Assembly (NCBI GenBank): GCA_965207375.1
Contig: OZ242274.1
Coordinates: 256,001 to 320,000 of the forward strand
Reading direction: 5' to 3'
Length of the DNA stretch: 64,000 nucleotides
Origin: Nitrosopumilaceae archaeon
GTDB lineage: Archaea; Thermoproteota; Nitrososphaeria; Nitrososphaerales; Nitrosopumilaceae
In this document: positions 5,614 to 61,477 of the stretch, piece after piece
Numbering within the stretch: position 1 is the stretch's first letter
How the letters are laid out: the number at the start of each line of letters is the position of its first letter
The notes under the pieces: model-generated
What the model saw: only the letters and a program-made list of their open reading frames with translations
The model's database searches: none
What the model was told of the DNA's origin: nothing
Position numbers and translations under genes: made by a program

Positions 5614-5726
5614 TATTCAAACACCATGTCAATACATCTTGTTTCTATATATCATCATCGGAAGTATGGCTTTAGGATAGGTTCGGTTCAAATCCAACTT
5701 CTGTTATTTAATTTCTATACAAAATA

Positions 5727-5827
5727 CAGCTAAATGAAATGTGTACAAAATAGGCCAAAACTTATTCCAAAATGCAAAGAGAACAACAGGGGCGGGATAG
5801 GAATTTGAACGACATTTCGCTTAGCTG
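5727..5827 (+). mobile_element. 101-bp MITE, CAG-ended family (copy 1)
   Basis: TIR CAGCTAAATGAAATGT / ACATTTCGCTTAGCTG; homologous inverted copy at 8691-8791. Confidence 0.8.
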
Positions 5828-5905
5828 ATAAGGCCGTAAAACACAAGGATCGTCACCATAAAATCATCATGTAATAGAGGAATCTGTAATTATTTTTTTT
5901 ATGCA

Positions 5906-7455
5906 TAGTAATTTGAAAAAAGAATGGAACCCAAATTCCTGAAAAAAAGAGCCTGCATGCCCATATCTTGGGCCAAATTGGACAGGAATGTGCCTGCTTA
6001 GTTGCATTTTTGTCATATTTGGTAACGTATGGGATCAATGAAATTAGAACTTGCGATACAAAAGATTGACGTGCCTAGAAGCAATTATGATACAACAGCT
6101 AAAGGCACATCAAGATACACTTGATAATGCCATATTTAACTGCCCATGTTGGGAGGACGATATTTTATGAAGCCATCCTCAGGGGTAAAGAGAGGAATAG
6201 AGTTTCTCAAAGGTACCACTACGTCTGAGATGGAACATCGCCTAAAGGCAGAGCACTCAGGCAAGTCGCGTGAGCGGCTACAGGCAGCACTGCTGCGCAG
6301 ACAGGGCCTAGATCTAGAATCTATACGTAAAATTCTAGGACGAGGTAAGGGCAGCATCTCAAGATGGCTCAACAGGATGCAAAAAGAAGGACCTGATGCG
6401 ATACTTGACGGCAAGAGTACCGGAAGACCCTGCAAGCTCTCAAAGGTACAACAGGAGGCAGTCAGAATATCTCTTGCCCAGGATCCAATGTGCAGCGGTT
6501 TTGAGCGCTCAAACTGGACTGCTAGACTGCTTGGAGTACACATTGAGAACAATTATGGTACACAATACAGTGCATCAGGAGCTCTTGCACTTGCGTATGG
6601 CATGGGTTATTCCATCAGAGTGCCTAGATCCGTACCATACAATACACCTGACAAGGAGACAATTGACAAATACGTGTCAAACACCATACAAGCAATTACG
6701 TCACATGCATCTGCTGATTATGCCATATGTTGTTTGGATGCTGTAGGATTTGCCGACTCGCCGTTTTCTGCTCGTGGGATTCGTCTCATAGGTGGACATG
6801 AAACTGTAAAGTCTAACTTTAAGACTGCTACCACAAAGGCAATAGGCGCACTCGGTCAAGACGGACTAGTCTTGGATTTTTATGACGACGTTGGATCTGA
6901 TAGTGTCATAGATTTACTTGAACAGATACGTAAAAAGCATGGCAGAGTCTTTGTGATATGTGATAATGCAAGTGGCCACAAATCCAAAAAGATCAAAGAG
7001 TATTTGGAAAAGGCATGCGGCGATGTTGTCCTGTGGTACCTTCCACCGTACACCCCACAGCACAATCCAATAGAGATGATGTGGCGTGAGATCAAACGGG
7101 CCATTGCAGGAAGATACTTTGGCAGCTTTGAAAAAATGCATGATACCATAAAACAACTCATAAAATCAGGCGAGGTGGCAACTGTAAAGCTGTTCAAATA
7201 CATGCTTGATGCAATAGATCAGGCCAAAAACGTCCTTCAGACATCTGTAATCTGAAAAACATATCAGGATTTCAAGGGTTGTCTTTTCAGGGTAACCTAA
7301 GCTCAAAACTGCACCAATATACCAAAACATGCCACAACATGTTTGATTTTATGAATTTGCCCATATTCTGTCATGATTTTGCGTTTTACCTGTGGCTGAA
7401 ATCTAATAGCACAGGCTACAGCCAGAAAGCGTTCCATTCTTTTTTGCGATTACTA
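5906..7455 (+). mobile_element. IS630-like element, copy 1
   Basis: About 25-bp TIRs TAGTAATTTGAAAAAAGAATGGAAC / GTTCCATTCTTTTTTGCGATTACTA; flanked by TGCA on both sides; near-identical to 31705-33252. Confidence 0.9.
6146..7255 (+). CDS. IS630-family transposase
   Basis: N-terminal HTH, GRP, WTARLL; catalytic CLDA, CDNASGH and LPPYTPQHNPIE. Confidence 0.92.
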   Translation: MLGGRYFMKPSSGVKRGIEFLKGTTTSEMEHRLKAEHSGKSRERLQAALLRRQGLDLESIRKILGRGKGSISRWLNRMQKEGPDAILDGKSTGRPCKLSKVQQEAVRISLAQDPMCSGFERSNWTARLLGVHIENNYGTQYSASGALALAYGMGYSIRVPRSVPYNTPDKETIDKYVSNTIQAITSHASADYAICCLDAVGFADSPFSARGIRLIGGHETVKSNFKTATTKAIGALGQDGLVLDFYDDVGSDSVIDLLEQIRKKHGRVFVICDNASGHKSKKIKEYLEKACGDVVLWYLPPYTPQHNPIEMMWREIKRAIAGRYFGSFEKMHDTIKQLIKSGEVATVKLFKYMLDAIDQAKNVLQTSVI

Positions 7456-7501
7456 TGCACATCTGATGATATTCAGAAAACATATTTGCATCAAATTAAA
7501 A

Positions 7502-9201: not shown

Positions 9202-9911
9202 TCAGCGTGATGTACGCTTGCGTCTTGCATGTATGATACATGCTTCTGCAGCATCATCTAGACGCTTGAATAATTTTTTGTAAATGTTTGTTGGATAGTT
9301 ATTGTGACGCAGTGCCTTGTATAGACCTGCCTTGAATTCGGTGATATTTTGATATACGGTATTACTTATCTCAGATTTTGTAACACCCCACTTACCCTCT
9401 ATGTCATTCATGTGGGGAGAGCCAGTGGGCAGATATATTGGCACTGTTTCTGGATTTTTCTTAAACCATTTTTTTACCTTTTTGGATTTGTGATATGATG
9501 CTTTATCCATCACAATTACTGTGGGTCCCATTGTCCGTTGCATATCTCGTAAAAATTCTATAAACGTAGGTGAATTAAATTTAGGTTTTATACGAAACAT
9601 AAATCGTCCGTCTTCTACCATGGCACCAATTATAGGCACTTTTTGCTTTGTACCGGTGTATGTGGCATACAGTCTCGTACCGCGTTTGCAATATCCATAT
9701 CTGGATTCAGAATCAATTTCAACTGATGCCTCATCTAGGGCAACAAGTTTGTAGCCCTGTTTCTGCAGTTTTCTAATCTTTGGAAGATTCTTTTTACGCC
9801 AGATGTCTGCTTCCTCGTTTGTAGCTGCACGTACATGAACCGGCATAATTTTTTTGAAGGTATGGCCGTTTTTGGCCAATATCCTTCGTATTCCTGATTT
9901 GCTGTATCTTT
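9202..9911 (-). pseudogene. 5'-truncated IS630-family transposase
   Basis: ALDEAS, MDKASYH and LPTGSPHMNDIE motifs; only the tail of the HTH region remains. Confidence 0.8.
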
Positions 9912-30804: not shown

Positions 30805-31235
30805 AGAGGTGATCCGTAATTATTTTTTATGCGTGCCTACTGCCATCCAGATGCCCTGCCTCAGTCAGGCCATCTGATTCAACCGCCACAATATGCTGCG
30901 GTTTACCAAACCGCACACAATATCGTTGATCCGGTCGTATTTTATGAGTGGATTCCTGTACACGTTTCCCATAATACGCCAGGTTTTAACCCTGCGTATT
31001 GCATGTTCTACGTATACACGAATCTTTGAGTGGATTTTGTTGTATTCTTTTTGCTCTTCTGTGATCTTTACACCCTTTTTCTTTTTGATTGGAGTGCACA
31101 GTATCCCTCCAGGAACCTCAGGTGCCCCTTGGTATCCTCTGTCTGCATATATGGTGACCTGTATTTCATCAGGTATTTTCTCTGGAAATGTTGGAGGTTT
31201 TTTCTTGTATACTGTAACGTCATGTATTTTTCCTG
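30805..31235 (-). pseudogene. Extra 431-bp copy of the 3' end of the ISL2-like element
   Basis: Direct, slightly diverged repeat of 31236-31666 including the TIR. Confidence 0.88.
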
Positions 31236-31704
31236 AGAGGTGATCCGTAATTATTTTTTATGCGTGTCTGCTGCCATCCAGATGCCCTTCCTCAGTCAGG
31301 CCATCTGATTCAACCGCCACAATATGCTACGGTTTACCAAACCGCACACAATATCGTTGATCCGGTCGTATTTTATGAGTGGATTCCTGTATACGTTTCC
31401 CATAATACGCCAGGTCTTGACCCTGCGTATTGCATGTTCTACGTATACACGAATCTTTGAGTGGATTTTGTTGTATTCTTTTTGCTCTTCTGTGATCTTT
31501 ACACCCTTTTTCTTTTTGATTGGAGTGCACAGTATCCCTCCAGGAACCTCAGGTGCCCCTTGGTATCCTCTGTCTGCATATATGGTGACCTGTGCCTCAT
31601 CAGGTATTTTCTCTGGAAATGTTGGAGGTTTTTTCTTGTATACTGTAACGTCATGTATTTTTCCTGGCGAATGACGTGTCTTGTGCACTATTATCCCATG
31701 CGTG

Positions 31705-33252
31705 TAGTGATTTTAAAAAAGAATGGAACCCAAATTCCTGAAAAAGAGCCTGTCCCCCTATCTTGGACCAAATTTGAGCACAATGTGCCTGTTTAGTTGC
31801 ATTTTGGTCATATTTGGTAACGTATGGGATCAAAGAAATTAGAACTTGCGATACAAAAGATTGACGTGCCTAGAAGCAATTATGACAAAGCAACTAAAGG
31901 CACATCAAGATACACTTGATAATGCCATATTTAACTGCCCATGTTGGGAGGCCGATATTTTATGAAGCCATCCTCAGGGGTAAAGAGAGGAATAGAGTTT
32001 CTCAAAGACACAACTACATCTGAGATGGAACATCGTCTAAAGGCAGAGCACTCTGGCAAGTCACGTGAGCGACTACAGGCAGCACTGCTGCGTAGACAGG
32101 GCCAAGACCTAGAATCTATACGTAAAATCCTAGGACGAGGTAAGGGCAGCATCTCAAGATGGCTCAACAGGATGCAAAAAGAAGGACCCGATGCGATACT
32201 TGACGGTAAGAGTACAGGAAGACCCTGCAAGCTCTCAAAGGTGCAGCAGGAGGCAGTCAAGATATCTCTTGCCCAGGATCCAATGTGCAGCGGTTTTGAG
32301 CGCTCAAACTGGACTGCCAGACTGCTTGGAGTACACATTGAGAACAATTATGGTACACAATACAGTGCATCAGGAGCTCTTGCACTTGCGTATGGCATGG
32401 GCTATTCCATCCGGGTGCCTAGATCTGTACCATACAATACACCTGACAAGGAGACAATTGACAAATATGTAAAAAACACCATACAAGCAATTACGTCACA
32501 TGCATCTGCAGATTATGCCATATATTGTTTGGATGCTGCAGGATTTGCAGACTCGCCGTTTTCTGCTCGCGGGATTCGTCCCATAGGTGGACATGAAACT
32601 GTAAAGTCTAACTTTAAGACTGCTACCACAAAGGCAATAGGCGCACTCGGTCAAGACGGACTAGTCTTGGATTTTTATGACGACGTTGGATCTGATAGTG
32701 TCATAGATTTACTTGAACAGATACGTAAAAAACACGGCAGAGTCTTTGTAATATGTGATAATGCAAGTGGCCACAAATCCAAAAAGATCAAAGAGTATTT
32801 GGAAAAGGCATGCGGTGATGTTGTCCTGTGGTATCTTCCCCCGTACACTCCACAGCACAATCCAATAGAGATGATGTGGCGCGAGATCAAGCGGGCCATT
32901 GCAGGAAGATACTTTGGCAGCTTTGAAAAGATGCATGATACCATAAAGCAGCTAGTACAAAGCGGTGAGGTGGCAACTGTAAAGCTGTTCAAATACATGC
33001 TTGATGCAATAAATCAGGCCAAAAACGTCCTTCAGACATCTGTAATCTGAAAAACATATCAGGATTTCAAGGGTATTGTCTTTTCAGGGCAACCTAAGCT
33101 CAAAACTGTACCAATATGCCAAAACATGCCACAACATGTTTGATTTTATGGATTTGTCGTATATTCTGTCATGATTTTGTATTTTACTGTGACTGAAATC
33201 CAATAGCACAGGCCACAGTCAGAAAGCGTTCCATTCTTTTTTGCGATTACTA
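31705..33252 (+). mobile_element. IS630-like element, copy 2
   Basis: Same TIRs as copy 1; flanked by CGTG on both sides. Confidence 0.9.
31941..33050 (+). CDS. IS630-family transposase
   Basis: Near-identical to 6146-7255 with intact DDE motifs. Confidence 0.92.
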   Translation: MLGGRYFMKPSSGVKRGIEFLKDTTTSEMEHRLKAEHSGKSRERLQAALLRRQGQDLESIRKILGRGKGSISRWLNRMQKEGPDAILDGKSTGRPCKLSKVQQEAVKISLAQDPMCSGFERSNWTARLLGVHIENNYGTQYSASGALALAYGMGYSIRVPRSVPYNTPDKETIDKYVKNTIQAITSHASADYAIYCLDAAGFADSPFSARGIRPIGGHETVKSNFKTATTKAIGALGQDGLVLDFYDDVGSDSVIDLLEQIRKKHGRVFVICDNASGHKSKKIKEYLEKACGDVVLWYLPPYTPQHNPIEMMWREIKRAIAGRYFGSFEKMHDTIKQLVQSGEVATVKLFKYMLDAINQAKNVLQTSVI

Positions 33253-34014
33253 CGTGTTAGTCGTATATTGTACCTTAGAGGTATGTTCTCCTGCCTTGCC
33301 CGAATAGTGAGACTTTTCCATGTCCTTGCGTCCTGGTCTTTGTATTTTCTGTTCTGAGGCATCAACAAGACATCTAAGACCTGGAAGAATCTCTTCTAAT
33401 TCCTCTATGGAGGAAATTCTCTTCATCTGGTCGTGTATCTTGGTAGGTATTGGAATGCATAGTTTTAGGATGGGCTCTATATGTGTAATAGAGCGCGATA
33501 CTGATGCTTGTCCTATTTCAAACATGACTGCTGCTACATCTTGTGTGGTGTATGTACGATAGTAAAACAAAAGTAGCATCACCTGGTCTCGTACATTTAA
33601 TGCGAATCTGCGGCCTGCACCTATTGCGCGCACTCTGTTTTCTCTAGAGAGCCTCTTTTTTTCTGCTCTTGGATACTTTTTTTCCACCTTAGATACCAAC
33701 AAATCAAATTCTTTGGCAGACATGCCTGTTACGGCACGAAATCTTCTGGGATTTTTTACCAGTTTTTCATAGGACATCATGAGTTGTGGTAGATTCGGGC
33801 GATATTTGGATCTTTTTGGTATTGCTAGGCGTGAAATTTAGGGAAATTTGCTAATTACGAATCACATCTCTAGGTGGACCTATTTTTCGTACAATAGAAT
33901 CATTCATCATGACATCTAGTATTCTGTCTCCTATAATATCTCGGATTAGATAGTACTTGATCTCTCTAAAATTTGACTAACCTGCCCCCTAGCATGGTAT
34001 CCATTATGGATTGG

Positions 34015-60163: not shown

Positions 60164-61477
60164 TAGCAGATCTAACTAATAATCAATAGTTTTTCTACAT
60201 ATTTTAAAAAACAAAGTCGTGACCTGACATTGACACTTGCAACAGTTGCGATCAAAGCAACTAAACATGAAATGCACAAAATATTACAGCATATTATCTG
60301 ATAGTTACAAACAAAAGAATCAAAGAACAAAATTACGGTATCAAATAGTCGAACATTTTTACTATTGGAATAGTTTTGTTTTTTATTGATCGAGCTATGA
60401 TACGTTTGAGCTCAGCATTTGTAGCTATAATACCTGCAATACTCTTTTTCATGACCGACCATTCAGGCTCAATCGGATTGAGTTCAGGAGTATATTTTAG
60501 ATAAAACTCAAACTGCATCTGACCACCTGTCTCCCTTGTGATACGTTTTAGCTCATCTTTTTTGTGATAAGCTGCATTGTCCATAAACATCAGAACCTTG
60601 CCGAATTTCTTGTGTACACCCTGCAAAAAGTTTTCCACGTTAACCCAGTTTCCTGTATCGTAAAACCTAAAGTAATATTCTTTCTCTGCGCCAATAGCAC
60701 CTATAATCGTGAGACTCTTGGATTTTTTAGATTTATTTTTTGCGGATTTTTTCTTTGGTTTTTTCTTGCCTGTGATAAATACAGGACGTTTTTCAAAAAA
60801 CCAGCCCTTTTTGGGCACTGATGCCACCAGCTTGTGAGCAGCATCCATGGTCATAATTGTGTGTCCTTTGTCGCTATAGTATTTTACCTTGCGGTGAGCT
60901 TTTTTTTTGAACACTGCGATTTCCTCAGGGGTTGCTGCCTTGTCGTTTCTAGGTCTAGGTGCAACTAGATGAAGATCAAGTCTAGTGATCAATGCCCATA
61001 CCGAACTTACATTGTAATCTGTCTTGAATATTTTTTTGATGTGTCTTTGTATTATGGGTGATGTCCACAAATTAGTATCATAACCACATTTTTGTGGTCC
61101 TTTTTTCAAATCACGTATTAGCTTGTTTATTTGCTTCTTGTCCAGCTTACACTGTGCACCAGGTTGCTTCTTATCGTATCTAGCATCAATGCCTTCCTTG
61201 TTGATTCTGTCTATCCAATTTTGAACCGTGGTGTACGGTATCTTTATGGAATTTGAAATTTCCCACAATGTTTTGCCCTCCTTTTTTAACATGTATGCAG
61301 TAATTCTCTGTACAACCTTTGGATTTTCTTCTTCTTTTTTGAGTTTGTACAATTTCTTCATGTTTGTATCTGGTAGGAATTTATCCATTGTAACCATCTT
61401 GGAACAAGATCGACATATAGATCTTTTAGTTGACTTTAATTGACAAATTTGCTATCGATTATTAGTTAGATCTGCTA
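60164..61477 (-). mobile_element. IS630 element with canonical TA duplication
   Basis: 26-bp TIR TAGCAGATCTAACTAATAATCRATAG with 1 mismatch; TA at 60162-60163 and 61478-61479. Confidence 0.92.
60333..61397 (-). CDS. IS630-family transposase
   Basis: HTH, LWTSP, MDAAH, MDNAAYH and YTPELNPIE motifs. Confidence 0.92.
   Translation of the reverse strand: MVTMDKFLPDTNMKKLYKLKKEEENPKVVQRITAYMLKKEGKTLWEISNSIKIPYTTVQNWIDRINKEGIDARYDKKQPGAQCKLDKKQINKLIRDLKKGPQKCGYDTNLWTSPIIQRHIKKIFKTDYNVSSVWALITRLDLHLVAPRPRNDKAATPEEIAVFKKKAHRKVKYYSDKGHTIMTMDAAHKLVASVPKKGWFFEKRPVFITGKKKPKKKSAKNKSKKSKSLTIIGAIGAEKEYYFRFYDTGNWVNVENFLQGVHKKFGKVLMFMDNAAYHKKDELKRITRETGGQMQFEFYLKYTPELNPIEPEWSVMKKSIAGIIATNAELKRIIARSIKNKTIPIVKMFDYLIP

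Follow-up and report, generated by a model that had tools for sequence, protein, structure and literature searches.

The insertion sequence and its copies

The window analysed here is a stretch of 64,000 nucleotides (G000:C1:256001-320000) from an ammonia-oxidising archaeon of the family Nitrosopumilaceae, whose genome (G000) comprises 4.3 Mb in four contigs. It carries two copies of an insertion sequence of 1548-1550 bp with the tips TAGT..ACTA, terminal inverted repeats that match at 22 of 25 positions and a single transposase gene. Copy 1 (1550 bp; 5906..7455, plus strand) begins with the left inverted repeat (25 bp; 5906..5930, plus strand), which has the common box AAAAAAGAATGGAAC and pairs with the right repeat (7431..7455, minus strand). 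The transposase ORF (6146..7255, plus strand) encodes 369 amino acids from the ATG at 6146, or 362 amino acids from the ATG at 6167. The element is flanked by TGCA at 5902..5905 and 7456..7459, which was read from the sequence as a 4-bp target duplication. Copy 2 (1548 bp; 31705..33252, plus strand; transposase ORF 31941..33050, plus strand) shared 94.6% identity with copy 1 and had the same sequence (100%) as the copy at C1:550405-551952. Its target duplication, CGTG at 31701..31704 and 33253..33256, was recognized from the flanks and from empty sites. Letters and coordinates of both copies were as described in the original prediction, which had been made from the window alone.

A genome-wide blastn search with the element found matches in 15 pieces, none of them outside contig C1; six were full-length copies with both tips. 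The original prediction had proposed that all copies be extracted with their flanks and checked for 4-bp repeats, and these were perfect at all six intact copies (TGCA twice, CGTG, TGCG, CGCA and CACA). All six repeats are of the type Y-R-Y-R, to which 6.1% of the 4-mers on C1 belong. The following pieces could not be scored: (i) c4, which is in two parts with unlike flanks (CACG and TGGG); (ii) c7, which has an internal deletion; (iii) c9, whose right tip is cut; (iv) c8 and c10, both right-end fragments; (v) c12, a fragment of 61 bp. The intact copies formed two sub-families, one consisting of copy 1 and three further copies (99.87-99.94% mutual identity) and one of two copies (100% identity), and every intact copy lay at a separate site with its own flank. 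As near-identical copies occupy different sites, both sub-families have been mobile recently, and the insertion sequence is, by this comparison, active.

A copy of approximately 580 bp at G000:C1:1673289-1673872 was internally deleted and its left tip had been replaced; AGTACT stood on either side. Just upstream of copy 1 (5726-5845) lies a repeat of about 100-120 bp which is present in approximately 40 copies on C1 at 73-85% identity; this repeat could represent a miniature element or the end of an insertion sequence.

Target duplications and empty sites

Flanks were tallied for 48 distinct copies whose ends could be placed; these came from several genomes of Nitrosopumilaceae and included the six intact copies of the window genome. 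The ends of relatives were set by comparison of copies and by a script that sought an inverted repeat with an outermost TA(G/C) tip; the script placed ends in 33 of 45 loci and failed in 12. Copies found by the end motif were added to the tally, and locus L080 was dropped owing to its ambiguous ends. Perfect 4-bp repeats were present in 33 of the 48 copies (6/6 in the window genome, 27/42 elsewhere). With the same boundaries, a 1-bp repeat was found in one copy and a 2-bp repeat in three, while repeats of 3 bp or of 5-8 bp were found in none. Random re-pairing of left and right 4-mers gave a mean of 9.5 matches and a maximum of 19 in 20,000 shuffles, compared to 33 observed, which excludes chance as the source of the repeats. 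Repeats that deviate from the consensus and are nevertheless equal on both sides (CGTG, CACA, TGGA, GGCA, TGGG, CGCG and CCCA) are the clearest sign of a true duplication.

Imperfect flanks were seen in 15 of the 48 copies, seven of which agreed at three of four positions. Nine more copies, read by eye, had no perfect repeat (0/4 in the G074 family, 0/3 in the G116 family, L067 and L080). In two loci of the G074 family, L023 and L040, CGCG and CGCT were swapped reciprocally, as expected from an inversion between two copies. We think that the unmatched flanks of the relatives come from mutation and from recombination between copies. In L042/L081 and in L080 the two flanks were inverted copies of one another (ATTATGCG-IS-CGCATAAT; 13 bp in L080), as if the element lay inside a palindrome with just CG repeated.

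Because A usually precedes and T usually follows the repeat, single copies can be read as having 5-bp duplications. In the four near-identical copies of the window genome the preceding base was A, A, A and C, and the following base C, C, T and T. Duplications of 5 bp or 6 bp with shifted boundaries are compatible only with copies in which the repeat is preceded by A or followed by T, and fail at those near-identical copies that have C there. Only a 4-bp duplication with the symmetric tips TAGT..ACTA suits all four copies.

In the logo of the 33 perfect sites, position -1 was A in 26 cases. The four positions of the repeat were T (23) or C (9), G (31), C (30), and A (21) or G (12), respectively, and position +1 was T in 24 cases. 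The repeats themselves were TGCA in 12 sites, TGCG in nine and CGCA in five, with seven more occurring one time each. The target consensus is A-YGCR-T, with ATGCAT as the ideal palindrome, whose four central bases are duplicated; the consensus does not contain TA. As the element starts with T and finishes with A, both junctions re-create A-TGCA-T, which would explain tandem arrangements of the type IS-TGCA-IS. Related copies or end fragments precisely one TGCA apart were present at L062:855-3764 and L079:2326-3661.

Copy 2 cuts an ISL2-like (IS5-family) element of 1082 bp when whole (31235..33869, minus strand) and splits its transposase gene into two pieces (31296-31688 and 33250-33780). Nine uninterrupted paralogues of this target read ..CCATG(C/T)GTGTTAGTC.. 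with a single 4-mer (seven CGTG, two TGTG) and no TA. According to the original prediction, removal of the element together with one 4-mer restores the interrupted gene, so that it reads NTHG, while a TA model adds two residues (NTYTHG); comparison with uninterrupted ISL2-like copies had been set as the check beforehand. After removal of the element and one 4-mer the gene in the window translates ..KVQYTTNTHGIIVHKT.., and the uninterrupted ISL2-like genes had YTTNTHG in 9/9 and NTYTHG in 0/9 cases. The prediction was thus borne out on both points.

A second set of empty sites was available for copy c11, which is inserted into a different repeat; here, three paralogues have the sequence ..GATAC(T/G)GCATCTGC.. 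with a single 4-mer. In total, the 12 paralogous empty sites (nine for copy 2, three for c11) had one 4-mer each and no TA. These sites are other copies of repeated targets and not ancestral alleles of the same locus. Orthologous empty alleles reading CGTGTACGTG or TGCATATGCA would be contrary to the 4-bp model; the paralogous sites are all without TA. The genome contained no paralogues spanning the sites of c1, c3, c5 and c6, and no empty sites for relatives were present among the relative loci collected. In Logan contigs of four public runs, which are fragmentary at repeats, no joins across the element, empty alleles or excision footprints were found. No RNA data set with the element was listed among the public runs.

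Copy 1 entered the left end of a diverged ISL2-like (IS5-family) element (5876..5905, plus strand), which resumes at 7460. The insertion point is about 27 bp inside that end, and the alignment is ungapped over the junction if the element and one 4-mer are removed, as originally described. This alignment may be taken as modest support for the 4-bp model.

The ISL2-like element has the ends AGAGGTGATCC..GAATCAC(C/A)TCT and is present in at least 10 copies, namely the one in the window (31235-33869) and nine at other places on C1 (e.g., C1:424223-425304). ISL2-like copies were flanked by 3-bp direct repeats (AAG, CAT, CAT, CTT and ATG). Directly adjacent to the interrupted copy is a partial ISL2-like one (30805-31235; approximately the first 430 bp in query numbering), which forms a partial duplication in tandem with it.

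The transposase and its relatives

The transposase matched the NCBIfam profile NF033545 (IS630) with 166.1 bits (cut-off 100) over profile positions 1-297 of 299; the next NCBIfam matches were IS481 (27 bits) and ISAzo13 (18 bits). Pfam searches detected DDE_3 (81 bits) and, in the N-terminal region, HTH_23/29/32/33. No Pfam match to a DDE_Tnp_4 or DDE_Tnp_1-type domain (IS5, PIF-Harbinger-like) was found at E values up to 0.01. Residues D191, D266 and E303 were kept in 19 relatives, and their positions give the spacing DD36E. The best sequence match in the PDB was the Sleeping Beauty transposase (E 8e-4). When an AlphaFold model (pLDDT 82.1, pTM 0.61) was used for a Foldseek search, the top seven matches were chains of the Mos1 transposase (E 6e-10 to 2e-8), followed by the catalytic domains of Sleeping Beauty and SETMAR. 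By profile and predicted fold, the enzyme is assigned to IS630/Tc1/mariner, with two putative N-terminal helix-turn-helix units and a predicted RNase-H-like core. With the IS630 family the element shares a profile score above cut-off, a bipartite HTH plus DDE domain organization and 25-bp inverted repeats around one gene. It lacks the hallmark of the family, insertion at TA with duplication of TA: the repeats at all six intact copies were non-TA 4-mers and the 12 empty sites were devoid of TA. It is therefore filed as a divergent sub-lineage, i.e., an IS630 member by enzyme ancestry minus the TA hallmark.

A protein search gave 85 matches, 68 of which had at least 35% identity and E values of 7e-55 or better. 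Below these 68 there was a gap, followed by matches with 24-27% identity and E values no better than 4e-22. In a class-wide scan of 201 genomes, 18 matched at E 1e-20 or better: the window genome, 16 others of its own family and one of another family of the same order. In a species-genome collection, 62 of 66 loci were from Nitrosopumilaceae, Nitrosopumilus, Cenarchaeum or thaumarchaeal records; the other four comprised one on a Gemmatimonadetes-binned contig and three weak ones from Nostoc and Dehalococcoidia. The locus on the Gemmatimonadetes-binned contig (L058) is a 1276-bp relative with 38% identity and a perfect TGCA duplication. Either there was transfer between domains that share a habitat, or the contig was binned wrongly.

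A transposase phylogeny had been called for by the original prediction. A quick maximum-likelihood tree was built from 37 rows (the two window copies, 22 relatives, four other elements of the window genome and nine distant database proteins), with near-identical copies and ORFs of less than 280 amino acids left out. The window copies fell within a 12-row clade (SH-aLRT 99), and a second 12-row group of 4-bp elements had a support of 89. A pair of TA-type elements, el2 and e2082 (support 100), joined the two 4-bp groups in an unresolved three-way fork, which was nested in a well-supported archaeal group. The tree thus places the window copies alongside IS630-family elements of the TA type from their own genome. 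Judged from flanks and tree, the 4-bp trait appears to be common to a clade almost confined to Nitrosopumilaceae and not private to the window element.

The window itself contains a TA-type element of the IS630 family (60164..61477, minus strand; tips TAGCAG..CTGCTA) with 2-bp flanking repeats. Its four full copies on C1 had the flanks TA/TA in three cases and TT/TT in one. The original prediction that this element duplicates TA held for the canonical length of 2 bp, but the duplicated bases were TA in only three of the four copies and TT in the fourth. From these flanks, the TA tips seem to be the element's own and the target duplication seems to be 2 bp long. Two other IS630-family elements of the genome had the arrangement TA-TAG..CTA-TA, i.e., 2-bp duplications beside the same type of tip. 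At one left flank of the TA-type element, paralogues matched through the outer TA only and then diverged, which is at most suggestive of an empty site.

Altogether, 34 stretches of the genome matched the IS630 profile. Copy 1 has one of these a few kb away (9304-9909; C1:265304-265909, minus strand), a partial IS630-family ORF with 132.7 bits over profile positions 95-297. The 4-bp and the TA-type transposases are not set apart by any large insertion or deletion. Members of the 4-bp clade have the motif TPQ(H/L)NPIE, in which Q was invariant in 19 members, whereas TA-type relatives have TPELNPIE. This residue, Q298, at the position of the TA-type E, is a candidate determinant of target choice or stagger.

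Origin of the 4-bp duplication

Taking profile, fold, repeats and empty sites together, the original proposal of an IS630 sub-lineage with altered target choice and stagger remains the best reading, the stagger being deduced from the length of the duplication. We consider it very probable that the window element is an active member of IS630/Tc1/mariner whose mobile unit, TAGT..ACTA, includes the TAs of the tips, and which duplicates 4 bp at an A-YGCR-T target.

In a canonical IS630 scheme, the element would be GTAAT..ATTAC, TA would be duplicated, and the outer 4-mers would merely reflect a preference for NNNN-TA-NNNN. The tips do read TA, as a TA duplication would give, and IS630-group elements are reported to duplicate TA in the part of PMC8533490 that was available. 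However, this scheme requires a direct-repeat target NNNN-TA-NNNN at all six intact copies. At each of the 12 empty paralogous sites there is a single 4-mer and TA is absent, and none of the nine uninterrupted genes has NTYTHG. The empty sites and the nine NTHG genes rule out the TA model, and we regard it as extremely improbable. The label IS630 might instead be an artefact of the profile, and the element might belong to another family with duplications of 3-4 bp (an IS5 subgroup, IS701, ISH3 or a PIF/Harbinger-like group). A 4-bp duplication and a length of 1.55 kb are indeed unusual in IS630, and the weak secondary profile matches to IS481 (27 bits) and ISAzo13 (18 bits) could be quoted in favour of such an origin. 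Yet the IS630 match (166 bits over 297/299 positions) is far above the rest, the best solved structures are the transposases of Mos1, Sleeping Beauty and SETMAR, and in the tree the element falls together with IS630-family members of the TA type from the same genome. Membership in another family is thus very unlikely.

The 4-bp repeats might also be real and still arise from a 2-bp stagger, with the extra bases added by a fixed repair or processing step, e.g., from 5' overhangs on the excised element. The 4-bp stagger is derived from the duplication length, and mariner-type excision leaves staggered ends. Against such a step, the duplicated bases are those of the target and differ between identical copies, and each empty site has them one time, for which a 4-bp staggered attack is the simplest explanation. 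Likewise, the symmetry of the logo about the 4-mer is in keeping with an attack of two-fold symmetry on the edges of the 4-mer. We give a 2-bp stagger with additional processing only a slight chance.

Mos1 and Sleeping Beauty insert at TA with a 2-bp stagger. Since their transposases are the best structural matches, the mechanism of a 4-bp staggered transfer was modelled on them. A transposase dimer would bind the 25-bp inverted repeats, and the element would be excised by cut-and-paste, as in its family. By analogy, the two 3' ends would then be joined to target phosphates 4 bp apart rather than 2, at the edges of YGCR, and gap repair would yield the 4-bp duplication. We speculate that two flexible pyrimidine-purine steps at the YGCR edges stand in for the single TA step of mariner; the symmetric logo is consistent with such steps supplying deformability. 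Structural similarity to Mos1 extends over the whole chain (4u7b, 5hoo, 3hos) and that to Sleeping Beauty over the catalytic domain (5cr4), while sequence identity to the window transposase is as low as 15-19%.

Duplication of TA is the textbook signature of IS630/Tc1/mariner and is used by annotation pipelines to find ends and miniature derivatives. The target of IS630 is the short palindrome CTAG. Like IS630 of Shigella sonnei, the window element has a single DDE transposase, N-terminal HTH units, terminal inverted repeats and a short palindromic target. Unlike it, the window element duplicates the 4-bp YGCR instead of TA and carries the TA of the tips itself. Its length of 1.55 kb, to which the non-coding ends contribute about 260 and 200 bp, makes it one of the longer members of the family. 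The TA-type elements of the same genome (60164-61477; C1:2081922-2083211), its nearest relatives with another duplication, share the TAG..CTA tips but differ in their 2-bp flanking repeats and in having TPELNPIE in place of TPQ(H/L)NPIE.

Duplications of 4 bp have been described in this superfamily. In the available text of PMC3606827, ISHsp2 from Halomonas sp. ZM3 is an IS630-family element with 4-bp direct repeats, and for this reason it was called a distinct member. By these published features, its target is TTAA with a TA core and there is a frameshift between two ORFs, whereas the window element has one ORF and a target with a GC core. Sailor (DD82E) is named as the exception among TA-duplicating members of the IS630-Tc1-mariner group in the accessible part of PMC8533490. 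It shares the 4-bp duplication but uses TATA and has a transposase of approximately 676 amino acids, as opposed to 362 amino acids, DD36E and a target without TA in the window element. IS630 is mentioned in one thaumarchaeal species in PMC6563490, whose available text gives no repeat data, and the terms TSD and target site duplication do not occur in the available text of a survey from 2026 on insertion sequences in archaea (PMC13343696). Full-text literature searches, to which the claim of novelty is limited, brought up no member of the IS630 group that makes a 4-bp duplication other than at TA; ISfinder may contain a named entry with a recorded 4-bp repeat.

While the published exceptions found (TTAA, TATA) retain TA, the GC-cored 4-bp clade does not. 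On balance, we favour the view that a whole, previously undescribed lineage, almost confined to Nitrosopumilaceae, gave up TA for A-YGCR-T and a 4-bp staggered transfer. It would follow that target sequence and stagger can both shift within the mariner fold in the absence of large insertions or deletions. With tools that assume TA, the ends of these elements would be set 2 bp too far inwards, and the 4-bp duplications would go unnoticed in ammonia-oxidising archaea, whose genomes are rich in insertion sequences. If the view is correct, the lineage would provide a naturally occurring case for working out which components of a mariner-type transpososome determine the width of the stagger and the choice of bases, with the close TA-type relatives in the same genome as a matched pair for mapping the determinants, and it could be a starting point for mariner-like tools that are free of the TA requirement.
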